Shown piece by piece: positions 16,913 to 24,171 of a stretch of DNA of 24,178 nucleotides. The position numbers were made by a program, and so were the translations under genes. Position 1 is the first letter of the stretch. The number at the start of each line of letters is the position of its first letter. This DNA is from Candidatus Azambacteria bacterium RBG_16_47_10. Lineage in GTDB: Bacteria; Patescibacteriota; Minisyncoccia; GWC2-36-17; WO2-46-25. The notes beneath the pieces are model-generated. The model was not told where the DNA came from, ran no database searches, and saw only the letters and a program-made list of their open reading frames with translations. Where the stretch lies: contig MEYI01000036.1 in the NCBI GenBank assembly GCA_001773975.1, positions 13,750 through 37,927 on the forward strand, read 5' to 3'.

Positions 16913-17833
16913 ATGAAGAAATTCATTGATGATTTTTTGGAATATTGCGAGATCGAAAAGAACCGTTCGCCAAAAACGTTGGAAAATTACCGCCGGTATC
17001 TGGTTCATTTTGCCGATTTTGCGCATATCACGCATCCATCGGAGATCACGGCGGAGATGGTGCGGCAGTATCGTCTCGCGCTCCATCGTTTTACTGACGC
17101 GCGCGGCGCGCGTCTGAAAATGAATACGCAGATGTATTATCTGATCGCATTGCGCTCATTTTTGAAGTTTTTGCATAAGCGCGACATACAAACGCTCGCG
17201 CCGGAAAAAATAGAGCTCGGCAAGGTGCGCGAGCGGGAGATCGATTTTCTTGATCCTGATGAAATGAACCGGTTGCTTGGCGCGCCCGATGGCGGTGATA
17301 TTTCCGCAGTACGCGACAGAGCGATGCTGGAAACATTGTTTTCCACGGGGCTGCGCGTGTCGGAGCTGTGCGCGCTTAATCGCTCCAGCATCAATCTGAA
17401 AACGGGCGAATTCGGCATTATCGGGAAGGGCGGGAAATTACGTATCGTATTTCTTTCCGATCGCGCAAAAGATGTACTTGAGAGATATGTGAAAGAGCGA
17501 ACGGATATTGATGATGCGTTGTTCGTGTCACATGGAAACGGTGCAGAGCGCAACACGTCCGTGACACGGCTGACACCGCGCTCGGTCCAGCGCATGATAA
17601 AAAAACATGCCGCAAAAGCGGGCATCATAAAAAAAGTGACACCGCATCAGCTGAGGCATTTCTTTGCGACCGATCTCTTGCAGGGCGGAGCGGATATTCG
17701 TTCGGTGCAGGCGATGCTCGGACATGCAAGTATTACGACGACACAGATCTATACGCACTATACCGACAGCCGTCTCAAAGAGATACACAAAAAATTTCAC
17801 GACACGAAGCGAGCCGGCGAGCGCAACAATTAA
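16913..17833 (+). CDS. xerC: XerC/XerD-like tyrosine recombinase
   Basis: SAM-like N-terminal domain (NRSPKTLENY), STGLRVSEL, GKGGKLRIV, TPHQLRHFFAT, MLGHASITTTQIYTH; catalytic R-K-H-R-H-Y present. XerC versus XerD cannot be resolved by eye. Confidence 0.88.
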   Translation: MKKFIDDFLEYCEIEKNRSPKTLENYRRYLVHFADFAHITHPSEITAEMVRQYRLALHRFTDARGARLKMNTQMYYLIALRSFLKFLHKRDIQTLAPEKIELGKVREREIDFLDPDEMNRLLGAPDGGDISAVRDRAMLETLFSTGLRVSELCALNRSSINLKTGEFGIIGKGGKLRIVFLSDRAKDVLERYVKERTDIDDALFVSHGNGAERNTSVTRLTPRSVQRMIKKHAAKAGIIKKVTPHQLRHFFATDLLQGGADIRSVQAMLGHASITTTQIYTHYTDSRLKEIHKKFHDTKRAGERNN

Positions 17834-18441
17834 GCGTATAAAAGAAGAGAACCGAGGTTGAGATACGGGGCAATAGTGCCAGCGTACAGAAGCGTTATTG
17901 GAATTGCATATAACAGCGCATCGGTAAGCACGATGCGCGTGTCGGCACCATGGCGAAGCGACGCGATGCCGGAAAGAAAGACCGTCAGGATAACCGCGGT
18001 TCCAAGATATACGATAAAGTATGGCCATCCGGTGGCAAGTGCCGCAAATACAAAGATATATTTATCTTCTTCCGCAAATAGCTCTCCCGCAAACGATTTA
18101 TTTGTCCATAGAGCGGCATAATACATGCCTACGCCGGCAATCACCGACACGGCGAAAGGAAACGCATAGTGCAAAAACATAAGGCGTATAAACCAGTCCC
18201 ATGATTGGTTTGGTGGCAGAAGAAGGCTTCCCATCGGATCAGCGCGAAGTAGAAAATATCCCGCTATGATCTTAAGCGCGAGCATCCCTGCAAGAAACAG
18301 AGCAAACCAAAGAACGATCTTTTTAAGCGCCTGCGCGGTAAGCGCTCCGCGTATGTGCTTTCCATACATGAACGCGAGAACTCCCACGCTTATGATAAGC
18401 TCTCCATAGGGGATGATAGTGGTAAGAATTGTCGATATCAT
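17830..18441 (-). CDS. Polytopic membrane protein with weak A24 prepilin-peptidase-like C-terminal motif
   Basis: 203 aa, about 5-6 hydrophobic segments; LFAEEDKYIF..ALATGWP resembles the A24 GxGD..L....G...GW motif. The CDS is confident; the family assignment is weak. Confidence 0.7.
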   Translation of the reverse strand: MISTILTTIIPYGELIISVGVLAFMYGKHIRGALTAQALKKIVLWFALFLAGMLALKIIAGYFLLRADPMGSLLLPPNQSWDWFIRLMFLHYAFPFAVSVIAGVGMYYAALWTNKSFAGELFAEEDKYIFVFAALATGWPYFIVYLGTAVILTVFLSGIASLRHGADTRIVLTDALLYAIPITLLYAGTIAPYLNLGSLLLYA

Positions 18442-18466: not shown

Positions 18467-18721
18467 TTATATGCGATCAAGATCTCTTTCTTTCAGTGCG
18501 TGCGTAATGATCCGCGATGCTTTGCCGGCAAATGATGCATACGTATTTTCGAGTTCGGCGTTCACAATGGCGGGGTCTCCGGTCACATGAAGCACATCGC
18601 CATTTTCCGCTACGGTAAGACCGGGTATTGTGCGTGCGCGCGAAAGTGCGGCAGTGGCACCCAGGAGCGCCATGTGTTTTTGTACGAGCAATGTGATGAA
18701 ACGAGTATTTGCGGGGATCAT
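18467..18721 (-). CDS. Small conserved-looking protein translationally coupled to the receiver gene
   Basis: 84 aa; TAATG stop/start overlap at 18719-18723; LLGATAALSRARTIPGLTVAENGDV..VTGDP resembles small CPR proteins I associate with signalling loci. Confidence 0.65.
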   Translation of the reverse strand: MIPANTRFITLLVQKHMALLGATAALSRARTIPGLTVAENGDVLHVTGDPAIVNAELENTYASFAGKASRIITHALKERDLDRI

Positions 18722-19140
18722 TATTGTTTTTTATCAAGCGCTTGTGCTATTTTTTGCGCGATGTCATGAAGTGACATTTTTGTTTTTTCAAAAAATGCAT
18801 GCGCTCCCAGCTCCAGTGCGCGGCCTTTATGTTCTGCGCCACTGAGGTTTGTAAACACAAAGACCGTTGCGCGTGCGCAGTGCGGCTCGCGCCGCACTTC
18901 TTCGAGGACGGTAAACCCGTTTTGTTTCGGGAGAAGAATATCAACAACAATGACATCCCATGGTTGTTGATGTATTTGCTGGATCGCCTCTTCCCCATCT
19001 TTTGCCGCCGCCGCCCTAATATCCATGCTGGCGAGTTTTAGCATGAGCGCATCACGCGTTGGTTCGTCGTCTTCGACAATGAGAACGCGTGCGCTGGATG
19101 TTTTTATGGAAGGTGATCGTTTTTGCGGCATATTACGCAA
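18721..19140 (-). CDS. Stand-alone response regulator receiver (REC) protein
   Basis: VLIVEDD, phosphoacceptor VVDILLP, VFTNLS, GAHAFFEK; no output domain. Confidence 0.93.
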   Translation of the reverse strand: MRNMPQKRSPSIKTSSARVLIVEDDEPTRDALMLKLASMDIRAAAAKDGEEAIQQIHQQPWDVIVVDILLPKQNGFTVLEEVRREPHCARATVFVFTNLSGAEHKGRALELGAHAFFEKTKMSLHDIAQKIAQALDKKQ

Positions 19141-20494
19141 GTGGCTTTCCTCTTCTTTTTTCTTGAATTCCTTGATACGGGATAGTGAAATAAAATGTAG
19201 ACCCCTCTCCCTCTTTTGAAGTAAACCACAGTTTTCCGTTCCAAAGGGAAACGAGTGAATTGGCGAGCGAGAGTCCGAGCCCTGTTCCTTCAGGAACTTT
19301 TTTCACGGCGTTGTCGGCGCGGAAAAATTTTTCAAACACCCGCGCGTGTGCCGAAGCGGGAATACCGATGCCGGTATCTGTCACTGATACGGTTGCTTCT
19401 TTCTCTCCGGCGGCAAGTGAAATGGTTGCCGTTCCTTTTTCCCGTGAGTACCGGATCGCATTGCCGACGATATTTGTCATAACTTCGCGAAGCATTGCGG
19501 GATCAATAGAAATGGAGGGAATGGATGGCACGGGTTCATTGAGGATAAGCGCCACCTTGTCTTTTTTCGCGATCGGAGCGAGTTCCTCAATGATGGTTTT
19601 TGTAAAATCGTCGATGGTAATAGGCTGGGGATTTATCTCAAGCGCTCCTCCTTCGACACGTGCAATTGATAAAAGCAGATTAATGGTGTCGCCGAGACGA
19701 CTTGCTCCTCCGGCGATCTGCTGTACGAATTTTGTCTGGGCTTCGTTGAGCGTACCCATCCCCTTTTCCATAAGTAATTCCGTGTACCATCGTACCGCGG
19801 TAAGCGGGGTGCGCAGCTGGTGCGATGCGAGCGACATGAAATTCCTCCGCGCTTCATCAAGCACTTTTTCTTCCGTGGCGTCGCGGAAAACAATGATCAC
19901 GCTTTTTACCCCCTTTTCTTGCACAAGCGGAGAAATGGTGAATGAGACGGGAAATTTTTCCCGCCCGGAAGTTTGGTAATAGAAATTGTCGGTAACTGAT
20001 GCGGTGGTTGTCTTTCCCAACGCGAACGCACGTGTTGCAGGACGGTTTTTGTCAGCAATGAGCTCATCTCCCTGCCATACCATGACGACAGTCCGCATAT
20101 CTTTTCCTTTCGCGTCTTCAGCGCGAAGCCCAAGCAGTGCCGCCGCTTTTGCATTGATCAGCGTGATACGGAATATTTCATCGATAAGCAAAAGGCCTTC
20201 GCCCATTGATGCGATAATAAGGTCAAGGTGACTTCGCTGTTTTTCAAGTTCTTCTTCAAGAGCGCGCGCATCCTCAAGGATATTGAGCATTGCAATCTCA
20301 TTTTCATGCAGCTCCGATTCTTTCGTGTGCCATTGCAGTTCACGCTCGCGCATTTTCTGCTCTAGCAAGCGGTTCTTTACATAGTTGGTCGCTTTAAGAA
20401 GAGTGAGTTTTTCTTCATACGAAAGCACCAACCGTTGTTTTTCGATATCGGTGACCGGTGTTTCCATGGCATGTGGATTTAGATGATCTTGCAT
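19133..20494 (-). CDS. Soluble PAS-domain sensor histidine kinase (start 20494 or 20467)
   Basis: No TM segment; coiled coil with AMLNILED; PAS (IIASMGEGLLLID..INAKAAALLG); H-box ASHQLRTPL; NIVGNAIRYS, DTGIGIP, FFRA, GTGLGL. Confidence 0.95.
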   Translation of the reverse strand: MQDHLNPHAMETPVTDIEKQRLVLSYEEKLTLLKATNYVKNRLLEQKMRERELQWHTKESELHENEIAMLNILEDARALEEELEKQRSHLDLIIASMGEGLLLIDEIFRITLINAKAAALLGLRAEDAKGKDMRTVVMVWQGDELIADKNRPATRAFALGKTTTASVTDNFYYQTSGREKFPVSFTISPLVQEKGVKSVIIVFRDATEEKVLDEARRNFMSLASHQLRTPLTAVRWYTELLMEKGMGTLNEAQTKFVQQIAGGASRLGDTINLLLSIARVEGGALEINPQPITIDDFTKTIIEELAPIAKKDKVALILNEPVPSIPSISIDPAMLREVMTNIVGNAIRYSREKGTATISLAAGEKEATVSVTDTGIGIPASAHARVFEKFFRADNAVKKVPEGTGLGLSLANSLVSLWNGKLWFTSKEGEGSTFYFTIPYQGIQEKRRGKPLA

Positions 20495-20976
20495 TCAATG
20501 AGACACACTTCGTCCCCAAGTCCCCCAATGCATTTTATTTCATCCCCGATTATTTTTTTACCCGGATACAGGTTTTCCAAGGCGCCGGCAACGATACCTG
20601 CCTCGAGTTGGCAAATAGGTTTGCCCAATGGAGGCGTGATGCCGTCGCATGTCATGCATTCGGCGATCGCAAGATGCGCGACATTCGGCGAGGTTACGGA
20701 AAAATTCAGCTTGCCGATCTTGAGCGCAGTGAGTTGACGATGGATATCTTCATGGGTTTTTATCGGAAGCATATTGCCGATATTTTTTCCTAAGAAATAC
20801 GAGATGGTCGGCGTTTCATCACCCAAGATCTTATAGAGACTTACCACACGCAACAAGCGCCACAGCACCACGGGGACATCCGGCCCCACGGTAGGACGCC
20901 GAGGGAGAAGACTGCTGATATCAAGATCTGCCGGATTGCGAGCGAATTCTTTGAAATTATTATTTTCTGGAGGCAT
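20479..20976 (-). CDS. Stand-alone V4R (4-vinyl reductase) domain protein, 4-Cys type
   Basis: ECMTCDG..GKPICQLEAGIVAGAL..DEIKCIGGLGDEVCLIEC matches the V4R pattern C..EAG..AG....E..C...G...C; N-terminal RPTVGPDVPVVLWRL. Confidence 0.85.
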   Translation of the reverse strand: MPPENNNFKEFARNPADLDISSLLPRRPTVGPDVPVVLWRLLRVVSLYKILGDETPTISYFLGKNIGNMLPIKTHEDIHRQLTALKIGKLNFSVTSPNVAHLAIAECMTCDGITPPLGKPICQLEAGIVAGALENLYPGKKIIGDEIKCIGGLGDEVCLIECKII

Positions 20977-20985
20977 AAGAAATGG

Positions 20986-22416
20986 TTAGTGTTTCTGATC
21001 GAGCTTCCCGATCTCTTTTTTTAATTCCACCATTTTCAATTCCCGTCCGACGGTCAGTCGTTTGAATTTCTCCAGCTCTTCTATTTTTTTCTGCAATTCG
21101 ACCGTGCGTTCGGTGGCTGCTTTCTCAAGCGTTTCTTTTATCTTTTCAAGTTCCGCGGTGCGCTCTTTTACCCGCTTTTCAAGTGTTATGTTTACACCTT
21201 TTAATTCCATCTGCGCTTTTTTCAATTCCGTTTCCGATTTTTCAATGCTACTGATCATTGCGTTGAATGTTTCAGCGATCTTCCCGATCTCATCATGTGA
21301 CGAAATAGTCGCGCGAGCGGTGAGGTCGTGCTCTGTGATCTTTTTTGCCGCCTCGCCGATGCTTTCAAAATTTCGTAAAAGCATAGAATTTAGAAGAAGT
21401 GTTCCGAGCGCGCCCACGATGATCGCAATAATGCTGCTGATAAAAAAGCGGAATTCAAACTGTTTAAGCGGCATCATGATCTCATCTCGTTCCGCTTCCA
21501 CGATCAAAATGGCATTATCGCGGTGGAGGCACATGGAAGCGCCGATCACCGGGATGTTTCGATAATTGAGATATGTTCCGGAGATCTCCCTGTTTTCATC
21601 AAAACACTTTTTGATCGGATCGGTATCGATGTGCAGCTTTAAAATCGCATCAGAAACAAAGCGTGATGGCGTAATACGAAGACGATCTTTATTTACCACA
21701 TACACCTCCGCGGTTTTATAATGTTCAAATAGCGCTCGGCCCGAGGGAGCTCCCTCACCCAGTTGCAGTGAGCCGTTAAGGAGATTGCCAAGGTCGTTCG
21801 TGTTTGTGAAGTGCAAAAGCATGACAGCATCCAACGGCGTTGTCTTTTTTGTTTTCTCATCCTGAATAAAAAGCCGGGATACCACATGGATCATAGGATC
21901 CATACCCTCGTCCTCTTCAAATACAAGATTAGTAAGAAATGCCGTGGGAGAAAGAGATGTGATCGCCTCGCTGAATCGATGCGCTTGAAATTCCTCTTCC
22001 TCCTCCTTTTCATTGAGCCCCAATCTGTTTTCTTGGGACGATGCGACGATGATGCCGTTGCGATCGAGGATATCAATAATGCTTATCGTCGGATCGTACG
22101 GTAATTTTTTATGAACAAAATAATCGGTGAGCTGGTTGCGCAGCGCAGTGCGTTCTTCTCCTTCGGGAAGCGCGATGAGCCGAGCTGTTGTTGTGCGAAT
22201 ATATCCGTCTGAGCTCCAGTCAACGGTGCGCGTTTGCATTGAATTAAAAAACGAGTAGTATGCTCCTTCGCTTGTTTCCGCGATGTCGCGGAAATTGTCG
22301 GCCGCCTGTTTTTCAAAATACGCGCCAAAATAACTATGGAAATAAAACAAAACGCTTCCCATCAGCGCAATGATGATGCCGATAAAAAGAAACGAAAACT
22401 TTGTTTTGAATTTCAT
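20986..22416 (-). CDS. Membrane sensor (extracytoplasmic Cache-like domain + HAMP + S-helix) lacking a catalytic output domain
   Basis: TM1 at the N-terminus, about 290-aa extracytoplasmic region, TM2, HAMP (DLTARATISSHDEIGKIAETFNAMI), VKERTAEL/TERTVEL, ending ELEKFKRLTVGRELKMVELKKEIGKL. Confidence 0.9.
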   Translation of the reverse strand: MKFKTKFSFLFIGIIIALMGSVLFYFHSYFGAYFEKQAADNFRDIAETSEGAYYSFFNSMQTRTVDWSSDGYIRTTTARLIALPEGEERTALRNQLTDYFVHKKLPYDPTISIIDILDRNGIIVASSQENRLGLNEKEEEEEFQAHRFSEAITSLSPTAFLTNLVFEEDEGMDPMIHVVSRLFIQDEKTKKTTPLDAVMLLHFTNTNDLGNLLNGSLQLGEGAPSGRALFEHYKTAEVYVVNKDRLRITPSRFVSDAILKLHIDTDPIKKCFDENREISGTYLNYRNIPVIGASMCLHRDNAILIVEAERDEIMMPLKQFEFRFFISSIIAIIVGALGTLLLNSMLLRNFESIGEAAKKITEHDLTARATISSHDEIGKIAETFNAMISSIEKSETELKKAQMELKGVNITLEKRVKERTAELEKIKETLEKAATERTVELQKKIEELEKFKRLTVGRELKMVELKKEIGKLDQKH

Positions 22417-22422
22417 ACGCTA

Positions 22423-24171
22423 TTATTGTATCACGGGCTCTGATGTTTGCACACTTTTTGGATGAGCTGCCGATGCAAGCGGAAGAGAGAAATAAAAGGT
22501 CGTTCCCCTTCCCTCTGCCGATTCGAAACGGAGCTTACCGCCGGATGCTTCCGCGAGCTCTTTGGAAATATACAGGCCGAGACCGGTACCCTCCATTTTT
22601 GTGATATTGTCGGCGCGGAAGAATTTTTCAAATATCCTGTTTTTTTGAAATTCAGGAATGCCGTAGCCGTTGTCTGCAATGGTAAGAAGAGCGTTCTCGT
22701 TTGCAAGCGAAAGCGTCAGTGTGATCTTCCCTTCCTCCGGCGTGTATTTTGATGCGTTTGTCAGCAGGTTTTGAAGCACCTGCCAAATAAGTTTCGGGTC
22801 GGCACTGACGCGCGGGAATGAATCGGGTCTTATAAATTCAAATTTTTGCTTTCGTTTTACGAAATTTTGCTCCACTTCAGGAAGCATGCTCTTAATAAAT
22901 TCGATGATGTTCGTCGGTGTCGGTTGGTTCTGCATCTTCCCCGCCTCAATGCGCGATACGTCCAGAAGGTCGTTGACCAACGTGATGATGCGTTCGTTGG
23001 AATTGTAAACATCAAGTAAAACGCCGCGTTGTTTTTCCGGCAGTTCCCCGAGATCGTTATTAAGCAGCATTTCCATAAACCACTTCATGGATGATAGCGG
23101 CGTGCGCAATTGATGCGACGTGATGGAAATGAATTCCGTTTTCATGCGGTCAACTTCTTTTTCTTGTGTGATATCGGAGAATACGAATGTGGTGCCGATG
23201 ACAGCTCCCTGTCCGTCATGGACAGGGTTCCCCATGATCTTGTAAATTCCGCCGTGTGTTTCCAATTCGGATAAGAGTTGTGGTTTTTGTGAACGGATGA
23301 TCTGTTCCGCGGCGCTGCGGAAATCAAGCTTGCCGTAGAGCGCTTGTACGATGTCGAGCATCGATACGGTTTCTTTTCCCGTGAGCCCGAGAATTTCGCG
23401 CGCTTTCTTGTTTATGATCATGATCTCCTGTTTTGCGTTCACCATGATCAGTCCTTCGCTGATCGACGCGAGCATGGAATTCGTTTTATTTTTCTCTTCT
23501 AAAAAAAGGCGTTGTATGCGAGAAACAACTTCCCCCGCTTCTTCGGCGACCGCATACAATACGCCGATCGCCGCCTCAGTGTAATAGTGCGGTTTTGTCG
23601 AGGCGGCCGTAATAAGTCCCGCTAATTTTTTATCGACAAATACCGGAACACTAAAAAACGAGCGTACCGGCTCCCGAGCATCTTCATCGTATGCAAGACC
23701 GAAGCACAGCGAACGCATCTGCTCCTCGCGTATCGGCGCGCCGGTAAGTGTGGCAAGGGCATCCATCATTTTTTTCTTCGCATTCTCCGCGAACGCCTTG
23801 TTTGCCGCGGCGCCGAGATGACATCGAAAGAATACTTCGCCATTTTCCCCGAAGGTAATATATGAAAGAGCGTTATATGCAACTATGCGATTGAGCGATT
23901 CCGCGATGATCTGCACCGCCTCTTGTTCATCAAGCGACACACTGATGCGTTCAAAAATTTCTTTGAGCACCGCGGCGCGATATGTTTTGTGCGCGATCTG
24001 CCGGTCATCGGATGAAAGACGATGCGCTATCTCGGTGAGAGCACTGCTTTCGTTGTCTGCCGATGCAAGTACCGCGGCATATTTTTTTCGTACCAAGCCA
24101 TCGGCCATCGTTTCAAAAGAGTGTGCCCGCTGGAGTATGGCAAACAGCGTGCGGAAGGAAAGCGTAAACAT
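22423..24171 (-). CDS. GAF-PAS sensor histidine kinase (may extend past the window end)
   Basis: GAF-like region (RSFFSVPVFVDKKLAGLITAAS..YTE), PAS (MLASISEGLIMVN), H-box TSHQLRTPL, NLLTNASKY, DNGYGIP, GTGLGL; the frame stays open to base 24178. Confidence 0.95.
   Translation of the reverse strand: MFTLSFRTLFAILQRAHSFETMADGLVRKKYAAVLASADNESSALTEIAHRLSSDDRQIAHKTYRAAVLKEIFERISVSLDEQEAVQIIAESLNRIVAYNALSYITFGENGEVFFRCHLGAAANKAFAENAKKKMMDALATLTGAPIREEQMRSLCFGLAYDEDAREPVRSFFSVPVFVDKKLAGLITAASTKPHYYTEAAIGVLYAVAEEAGEVVSRIQRLFLEEKNKTNSMLASISEGLIMVNAKQEIMIINKKAREILGLTGKETVSMLDIVQALYGKLDFRSAAEQIIRSQKPQLLSELETHGGIYKIMGNPVHDGQGAVIGTTFVFSDITQEKEVDRMKTEFISITSHQLRTPLSSMKWFMEMLLNNDLGELPEKQRGVLLDVYNSNERIITLVNDLLDVSRIEAGKMQNQPTPTNIIEFIKSMLPEVEQNFVKRKQKFEFIRPDSFPRVSADPKLIWQVLQNLLTNASKYTPEEGKITLTLSLANENALLTIADNGYGIPEFQKNRIFEKFFRADNITKMEGTGLGLYISKELAEASGGKLRFESAEGRGTTFYFSLPLASAAHPKSVQTSEPVIQ
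22425..22433 (-). promoter_or_regulatory. Extended -10 (TGATACAAT) overlapping the kinase stop codon
   Basis: 8 nt upstream of ATG 22416. Confidence 0.45.

Follow-up and report, generated by a model that had tools for sequence, protein, structure and literature searches.

A kinase-less HAMP receptor with a conserved terminal tail and a soluble histidine kinase as probable parts of one sensor kinase in Candidatus Azambacteria

In textbook two-component sensing, sensor and kinase are parts of one polypeptide, and the exceptions known so far rely on binding proteins or on inhibitors. In chemoreceptor systems, CheW bridges chemoreceptors and CheA, and partner-sensor systems such as H-NOX with HnoK-type kinases, LuxP–LuxQ and TorT–TorS are bipartite, pairing a sensor protein with an enzyme. 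Here, a cluster of six open reading frames (ORFs) from Candidatus Azambacteria bacterium RBG_16_47_10 is analysed, which is located at 18467–24171 of a stretch of 24,178 nucleotides (contig MEYI01000036.1, positions 13,750–37,927; this whole stretch is termed the window). All features of the window that are given coordinates below lie on its minus strand. In gene order, the cluster encodes the kinase HK1, a membrane receptor without a kinase domain, a V4R protein, the soluble kinase HK2, a lone receiver (REC) and a small protein, ORF84. The core of this locus, consisting of the receptor, HK2 with an N-terminal coil that carries the motif LNILED, V4R and the lone receiver, probably is a multi-protein sensor kinase in which the conserved C-terminal tail of the receptor would dock on HK2. 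It exemplifies, in well-preserved form, a very widespread and apparently undescribed wiring of kinase-less sensors to a kinase; literature searches on LNILED and GRELRM strings, on HAMP or ODP proteins with kinases (the former in Patescibacteria), on output-less sensors and on split histidine kinases found no description of such tail–kinase wiring.

Like chemoreceptor–CheW–CheA systems, this wiring combines kinase-less dimeric Cache/HAMP receptors that have a conserved helical end with a separate soluble kinase and a lone CheY-like receiver, and several different receptors would be able to feed one kinase. However, HK2 is an ordinary HisKA/PAS kinase, and the predicted contact motif is a short terminal coil rather than a hairpin tip. 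Neither the signalling domain of methyl-accepting chemotaxis proteins (MCPs; PF00015) nor CheW (PF01584) was found in the genome bin (G000; 676 kb, 49 contigs, 84% complete), in which CheA was not searched for; likewise, no methylation system was seen, CheR and CheB not having been searched for. As in the partner-sensor systems, and as for the di-iron ODP sensor that accompanies a chemoreceptor in Treponema denticola (PMC7666581), a small ligand-binding protein is encoded beside its transducer, and sister loci hold ODP, hemerythrin, FIST or solute-binding proteins; unlike the partner-sensor systems, the present locus adds a membrane receptor as a further protein, which ends in a motif of its own. 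In RetS–GacS (PMC5992135) and DivL–CckA, a non-phosphorylating sensor modulates another kinase via helical contacts, but RetS and DivL keep DHp/CA-like folds, whereas the receptor has none and its tail is unlike DHp by profile. In the described 'split histidine kinases', DHp and CA, or the halves of CheA, are on separate proteins (PMC3591291; Hik36–Hik43, PMC7656254). One signalling unit is distributed over two genes both there and here, but there the catalytic core is split, whereas the core of HK2 is complete and the sensor is separate. The proposal in the initial annotation that the receptor and HK2 are two halves of a split kinase is not supported in the sense of a broken kinase: the receptor is a member of a very large sensor class with a dedicated terminal motif.

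The receptor gene (20986–22416) encodes a transmembrane segment (TM1), a double-Cache ectodomain, a second transmembrane segment (TM2), HAMP, two S-helix heptad units with the ERT signature and the terminal tail. HAMP (PF00672; residues 343–392, 21241–21390), located directly after TM2, is the sole Pfam match (41.6 bits; cut-off, 25). Pfam and NCBIfam scans of the receptor revealed no kinase, cyclase or MCP domain, as the initial annotation had stated, and no DHp or ATPase domain; NCBIfam kinase models match only residues ~234–454, which are mostly HAMP and linker, with scores far under the cut-offs. The receptor is not a HisKA-type histidine kinase, the chain stopping 7 residues past the tail motif, nor is it a methyl-accepting chemotaxis protein, MCPsignal being absent, though some databases so name its homologues. 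In an AlphaFold2 model based on 59 homologues (predicted local distance difference test score, pLDDT, 87), TM1 runs into a long helix, which is followed by two alpha/beta modules, by TM2 running into HAMP, and by an unbroken helix of residues 376–468. Foldseek matched this model to the solved double-Cache domains of PscC, Mlp37, Mlp24, DctB, KinD and TlpC (E ~1e-7, probability 1.0) and to full-length dCache–HAMP chemoreceptor models (E 1e-13), and the Pfam dCache_1 match is weak (E 0.093; 12.7 bits, with a cut-off of 45 bits). The extracytoplasmic sensor domain (residues ~31–320, 21457–22326) is thus a double Cache (dCache_1) domain by its predicted fold and not by sequence model, consistent with the earlier label 'Cache-like'. 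Its Cys271 is invariant in an alignment of 21 sequences and nearly so in one of 59 sequences; Cys296 is invariant in the former only.

The receptor is full length in all four congeners (51–53% identity). Homologues in another family of the order share 33–37% identity, and dozens of HAMP-only relatives of 430–490 aa are present in Patescibacteria. In a neighbouring family, two receptor orthologues (L039 and L040; G011:C6 and G015:C53) stand behind a conserved trio of small ORFs of ~106, 88–99 and 200 aa. The Azambacteria genome itself also encodes an 'unsplit' paralogue of 944 aa (G000:C48:1497–5138, L043), in which an N-terminal extension precedes the dCache sensor shared with the receptor, HAMP, PAS and a kinase domain; its gene is followed by those of two lone receivers.

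The last 35 residues of the receptor, ELEKF-x4-VGRELKM-x-ELKKEI, are the best-conserved stretch in the alignments of 21 and 59 receptors, in which Glu449, Arg458, Glu459 and Lys466 are invariant. The motif ELEKFKRLTVGRELKMVELKKEI (residues 447–469, 21010–21078), delimited by translation, alignments and profile, includes the VGRELKM core, which begins 21 residues before the C-terminus. This tail is preceded by the S-helix units KERT (416–419) and TERT (435–438); ERT is also found in the family consensus, and the heptad units before the tail vary and are often deleted among receptors, such that the length of the S-helix is variable. The S-helix was defined as a heptad coil with an ERT signature that lies between two domains of one protein, sensors upstream and kinases downstream, and terminal or trans-acting forms are not mentioned (Anantharaman, Balaji, Aravind 2006, PMC1592074). 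The receptor resembles this element in that two ERT heptad units follow HAMP, in that the invariant Arg of the tail occupies the core 'd' position of the heptad register like the Arg of ERT, and in the sensor-then-kinase polarity. It differs in that nothing but a distinct conserved motif terminates the helix and the chain, the domain expected downstream being encoded as a different protein; in none of the 85 surveyed tail ORFs does the helix lie between two domains. The conserved Val, Leu and Ile residues of the tail fall at outward b/f positions of the heptad, which suggests a second hydrophobic seam, or helix-packing surface, open to a partner.

The tail is not restricted to this receptor family. 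When a 39-column profile was run against 1.84 billion representative proteins, 13,909 clusters matched at E ≤ 1e-3, and 636 matched at the stricter E ≤ 1e-10. The 150 best of the 13,909 matches nearly always have the motif at the very C-terminus, and in all 85 tail ORFs of 80 genome loci it starts 18–40 residues from the end. Domain scans of ten matches detected no catalytic domain in any, and seven of the eight long ones (541–1014 aa) are pure sensors; architectures of long tail carriers include dCache–HAMP–PAS–PocR–PAS, 7TM–dCache–HAMP and PAS arrays. Two relatives of the receptor, P0033 and P0071, carry an additional GAF, or PAS together with GAF, between HAMP and tail. Tail carriers are found in Patescibacteria, DPANN archaea, Omnitrophota, Elusimicrobia, Aminicenantes, Methanosarcinales and others. 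Searches of Pfam at E ≤ 10 and of PDB sequences for a known family or structure gave chance coiled-coil matches only. A VGRELKM-type motif at most 40 residues from the C-terminus of a protein without a catalytic domain is the first of two features by which the module is defined here, and it is present in the receptor. Small REC–tail proteins also occur; two of 171–174 aa (L136:3059–3583 in G182, and L082) are encoded directly upstream of LNILED kinases, and in such proteins the tail may pass the phosphorylation signal of one two-component pathway on to a second kinase.

HK2 (19133–20494) contains an N-terminal LNILED coil, PAS_9, HisKA and HATPase_c, and is a HisKA-type histidine kinase with the H-box SHQLRTPL, which is also found in HK1 (HisKA, 55.6 bits in HK2 and 61.0 in HK1; HATPase_c, 99.0 and 103.3 bits, respectively). 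The coil segment, identified by translation and alignment (residues 52–91, 20222–20341), has the core AMLNILED ~25 residues before PAS. In the alignment of kinases, the Ala, Asn and Asp residues of this core are invariant, and the motif is described by the pattern [LMIV]N[ILMV][LM][ED]D preceded by the invariant Ala. A Pfam search of the HK2 N-terminus gave chance coiled-coil matches only. A common origin of tail and LNILED coil as copies of one repeat was considered and is not supported (hhalign probability 13%, the preceding coil alone aligning).

Several lines of genomic evidence connect the tail with the LNILED coil. In the 80-locus survey, 52 of the 85 tail genes have a co-directional kinase gene among the next four genes downstream. 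The LNILED motif is present in 39 of the 44 distinct kinases downstream of tail genes, as compared with 8 of the 22 further kinases that these loci encode, and most of those 8 are in loci where the strict tail pattern had failed. Profile searches for both motifs were conducted in two genome samples, one of a class (n = 301) and one of a phylum (n = 401), with six genomes in both. In the class sample, tail and LNILED occur together in 38 genomes, the tail only in 8, LNILED only in 4 and neither in 251; the corresponding numbers in the phylum sample are 39, 5, 2 and 355, and the odds ratios are in the hundreds. Among the double-positive genomes, 32 of 38 in the class sample and 32 of 39 in the phylum sample have the tail upstream of LNILED on the same strand, within ~3 kb; in most exceptions the two are on different contigs. 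As related genomes are not independent, weight is placed on the repeatability of this link across many families and not on p-values. Genome G000 encodes exactly one tail protein and, among its five kinases, one LNILED kinase, with only V4R between them. The second feature that defines the module is a kinase gene with an A-x-LNILED coil downstream of the tail, on the same strand and at most ~3 kb away, with lone REC genes behind it; here, the motif of HK2 is 0.7 kb downstream and REC follows. Elsewhere, several tail genes often precede one kinase, with three in L068.

Natural fusions point to the same pair of elements. In P0070 (803 aa), the same sensor and HAMP are fused directly to an ATLNLLED–PAS–kinase and the tail is absent. 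In a kinase of 487 aa from G096, a transmembrane segment, a coil, the tail, a Pro-rich linker of 24 residues, AMLNILED, PAS and the kinase are joined in one chain. This is the one cis fusion of tail and LNILED among ~700 genomes, besides direct fusions of the P0070 type; a word-index search for cis fusions returned the query alone. By Rosetta-stone logic, the fusions argue for a direct functional, and probably physical, link between tail and LNILED coil, and the flexible linker in G096 suggests that two helices would pack side by side rather than form one continuous helix. Co-occurrence was also examined at the level of the locus: receptor, V4R, LNILED kinase and REC are together in the genus and in the distant locus L051, whose proteins are just 36–38% identical. 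The core idea of the initial annotation has thus been largely borne out by the genomic tests that it proposed, including the survey of gene neighbourhoods and the search for receptor–kinase fusions, with a strong genomic tie between receptor tail and HK2 coil in both samples; overall, the interpretation is partly supported.

The gene between receptor and HK2 encodes a stand-alone, cysteine-rich V4R/DUF2507 protein (20479–20976), which exceeds the gathering scores of both V4R (PF02830; 36.4 and 31 bits) and DUF2507 (PF10702; 42.9 and 35 bits), is not H-NOX by Pfam, and is the only V4R in the genome. In other loci, the slot between tail sensor and kinase is occupied by hemerythrin, by di-iron ODP alone or as NIT–HAMP–ODP, by FIST, by NIT, or by periplasmic solute-binding proteins of four families. 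Because the slot occupants elsewhere are all ligand binders, V4R is read as an added cytoplasmic input, responding to a small molecule, a metal or redox state. This role had been suggested in the initial annotation and is favoured by these occupants.

The stand-alone receiver (18721–19140; PF00072, 69.3 bits; 139 aa) has no output domain, and is a CheY-like response regulator in which the acidic pair, the Asp of VIVVD and the conserved Thr and Lys residues are all present. Its start codon is TTG, or possibly an ATG three codons inside. REC is likely to be the phospho-acceptor of HK2; in 35 of the 52 surveyed loci, the kinase gene has one to three lone REC genes behind it. Genome G000 encodes five histidine kinases and nine receiver domains, the latter in frames of 126–193 aa, bar one 282-aa frame holding two. 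No OmpR-type (Trans_reg_C) or NarL-type (GerE) DNA-binding output domain turned up in this genome, which is 84% complete; a similar pattern has been described for archaea (PMC5847659). The lack of such outputs, together with the stand-alone receivers, indicates post-translational control, plausibly of type IV pili.

In one congener (G003:C13, L042:754–1422), HK2 is just 222 aa long and consists of coil and PAS with no kinase core; its gene is followed directly by ORF84 and by no REC gene. This short form could be due to decay, a frameshift or an assembly problem.

As epibionts, Patescibacteria presumably use type IV pili to contact hosts and take up DNA. In G000, a lone receiver gene is located between genes for PilB-type and PilT-type ATPases (C22:6398–8854), and a small kinase and a receiver are encoded directly upstream of a second PilB (C44:171–3351). 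These neighbourhoods suggest that receivers in G000 act on type IV pilus motors. Also, genes for pilin, PilB, PilC or PilM flank the module in several distant loci. The genes after the REC genes were considered as candidates for the output and rejected, as they are mostly housekeeping genes (holA, fpg, dnaG), except for PilB in three loci. A pilus-directed post-translational output is plausible from these gene positions, as a lead only.

Taken together, a mechanism can be proposed in which the tail of the receptor dimer would dock on the A-x-LNILED coil of HK2, probably as a four-helix bundle, and ligand-induced rearrangements of HAMP and S-helix would pass in trans to HK2. V4R would give a second cytoplasmic input or stabilise the complex. 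HK2 would phosphorylate the lone receiver, which in turn would act by contacting other proteins, among which the ATPases of type IV pili are possible targets. The domain content of the six proteins, the conservation of receptor family and tail, the terminal location of the tail, the coupling of tail and LNILED genes and the fusions are observations, whereas docking, direction of regulation, V4R ligand, phosphotransfer partner and output are inferred. The pairing would probably let separate sensor proteins feed one kinase. In genomes surveyed here, the tail is carried by Cache–HAMP receptors, 7TM proteins, PAS/PocR arrays and REC-tailed relays, with or without a V4R-type, hemerythrin or ODP co-sensor. 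There is about an even chance that the VGRELKM tail and the LNILED coil constitute a general, widespread and undescribed non-covalent plug-and-socket code, by which interchangeable kinase-less sensors assemble on one kinase with a logic similar to that of chemoreceptor arrays.

Several observations weigh against docking of the receptor on HK2. LNILED matches are absent from 8 of 46 tail-positive genomes in the class sample and from 5 of 44 in the phylum sample, and 5 of the 44 downstream kinases do not have the motif. The receptor orthologues in G011 and G015 stand without an adjacent kinase. Fisher values overstate the significance of the tail–LNILED link, in that related genomes are counted. 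The tail is too invariant for informative covariation with paired LNILED coils, and the structural models were folded as single chains. In addition, no protein of the cluster is better conserved than V4R, with 64–68% identity in congeners (49–55% for its neighbours) and 53% in L051 (36–38% for the other proteins), as would be expected of a coupler that is obligatory rather than of a sensor that is optional.

The last observation leads to the reading that a small V4R-type protein bridges receptor and kinase like CheW, the tail being a V4R binding site with no direct contact to the kinase. Because V4R is so highly conserved, and every congener with data encodes it, such a coupler role deserves to be weighed. 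A family of ~200 aa without Pfam match, with the signature HP..C ... EETKC..GD..HEY, is also found between tail sensors and LNILED kinases in at least 11 loci, sometimes in tandem (for example, L080:8353–8952, L122:8347–8955 and L138:3071–4281). It shares the pattern C...EETKC...GD..HEY with the C-terminus of V4R and may be a V4R/H-NOX-like co-sensor; the hhalign comparison with V4R is weak, however, with a probability of 1% and alignment of the Cys/EETKC pattern only. A general coupler is difficult to reconcile with the many loci in which a tail gene is directly followed by an LNILED kinase (L059, L064, L077, L079, L085, L089, L091, L109 and L131), with the unrelated and partly periplasmic binding proteins that often hold the slot, and with the G096 fusion, which unites tail and LNILED without V4R. 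Bridging by V4R is therefore considered rather unlikely.

In another reading, the tail would have a negative effect instead of passing on activation: it could mimic a kinase helix and, as a decoy, sequester HK2, its catalytic domain or the receiver. DivL–CckA is reportedly a precedent for kinase inhibition by a sensor-like protein through helix contacts. RetS–GacS (PMC5992135) is another, and a short likeness exists between G-R-E-L-K of the tail and S-H-E-L-R. However, when 85 tails were compared with 54 DHp H-box regions by hhalign, the profile–profile probability was 0.2%, so that the tail was rejected as a homologous, His-less DHp helix 1 (pseudo-H-box); moreover, the spacing from Phe to His/Arg is off by one residue, and Met is at the position of the phosphatase Thr/Asn. 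The genomic data are blind to the sign of regulation, and except for mimicry this reading overlaps with the docking of the tail on HK2. The decoy reading is unlikely.

The receptor might also work independently of the neighbouring kinases, as a membrane scaffold or as a regulator of pilus or envelope, gene adjacency reflecting co-regulation. The orphan orthologues in G011 and G015, the tail-positive genomes without LNILED match, and the genes for pilin, PilB, PilC and PilM near several loci are in line with this idea. It would leave unexplained the link between tail and LNILED, which is strong and specific across phyla and domains, the fusions that unite tail or sensor with an LNILED kinase in one chain, and the presence of the tail behind every kind of input domain, REC included, and is thus very unlikely. 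Finally, an artefact or gene decay can be dismissed, be it a sensor kinase cut short by frameshift or truncation or a pseudogene derived from the paralogue on C48, in which the shared sensor and HAMP continue into PAS and kinase, since the receptor is complete in all congeners with an end point constant in these and in dozens of homologues, has no stops or frameshifts, is best conserved in its final 35 residues, which the tail profile recovers, and is followed after 9 nt by the unrelated V4R gene. This also removes the concern of the initial annotation about a truncation confined to this assembly.

Docking of receptor and HK2, with V4R and REC, concerns only part of the cluster. The six genes are co-oriented and tightly packed as had been described (spacings of +6, +9, −16, −8 and −1 nt in gene order, with domains assigned by Pfam), but they do not make up one unit, HK1 and ORF84 being lineage-specific additions. 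HK1 (22423–24171) contains GAF_2, PAS, HisKA and HATPase_c by Pfam, and the genome motif scan found no LNILED in it. The window comprises the final 24 kb of the 38-kb contig and ends at the contig edge, 7 nt upstream of the HK1 ATG; the longest-ORF calls for HK1 in congeners have ~43 more N-terminal residues, so the start assigned to HK1 is provisional. HK1 is upstream of the receptor in G001, G003 and G004 and precedes it in this genus only, and in G007 an HK1-type kinase is present with ORF84 and no detected receptor homologue. HK1 is a neighbour rather than a core part of the module. In relatives, small selfish-looking genes are inserted inside the module without disrupting it, namely a PD-(D/E)XK gene of the PDDEXK_3 family (L037:8094–8495 in G001) and a gene of the 23S_rRNA_IVP family (L051:9544–9915).

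ORF84 (18467–18721) has no Pfam match even at E ≤ 10, including HalOD1 (PF18545). It is found in 9 of 10 genomes of the bacterial family, to which it is specific, and is always located right behind a kinase or REC gene, whether or not the receptor is present: it follows HK2 in G001, G002, G003 and G004 and the HK1-type kinase in G007. Its AlphaFold2 model (pLDDT 88.7) is a small alpha/beta protein, which resembles only uncharacterised small proteins of the candidate phyla radiation and additional domains that certain ODP or REC proteins carry. In the Atlas, the same fold is an extra domain in ODP-family and GGDEF/ODP/REC proteins of other phyla (TM score 0.68–0.75 by query). One neighbour in the AlphaFold DB is named halobacterial output domain (TM score 0.86, E 2.5e-3, with the aligned part unspecified); an assignment as HalOD1 or H-NOX-like was rejected, there being no sequence support and only non-significant structural matches in the PDB (E > 1). 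ORF84 is a real gene and an accessory outside the widespread module, and may, judging from its modelled fold, be a small signalling adaptor domain.

Downstream of the cluster, ORF203 (17830–18441) encodes a polytopic membrane protein of 203 aa without Pfam match, which is located at the same position in congeners (44–46% identity). Its Atlas model matches models of prepilin peptidase (Peptidase_A24) with TM scores of 0.60 by ORF203 and 0.50–0.72 by the matches, and thus ORF203 may be a divergent pilin-processing protein beside the signalling operon.

If docking of kinase-less receptors on LNILED kinases is true, these organisms would use a design different from the textbook one, with thousands of output-less sensors that share a conserved tail and with signals from several receptors being integrated brick-like on one kinase. 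The tail and coil would be a natural docking pair for the rewiring of sensors in synthetic biology, amenable to study with short peptides and soluble fragments. Such wiring would also account for a very large set of proteins whose present annotation says no more than 'HAMP domain-containing' or mistakes them for chemotaxis proteins.

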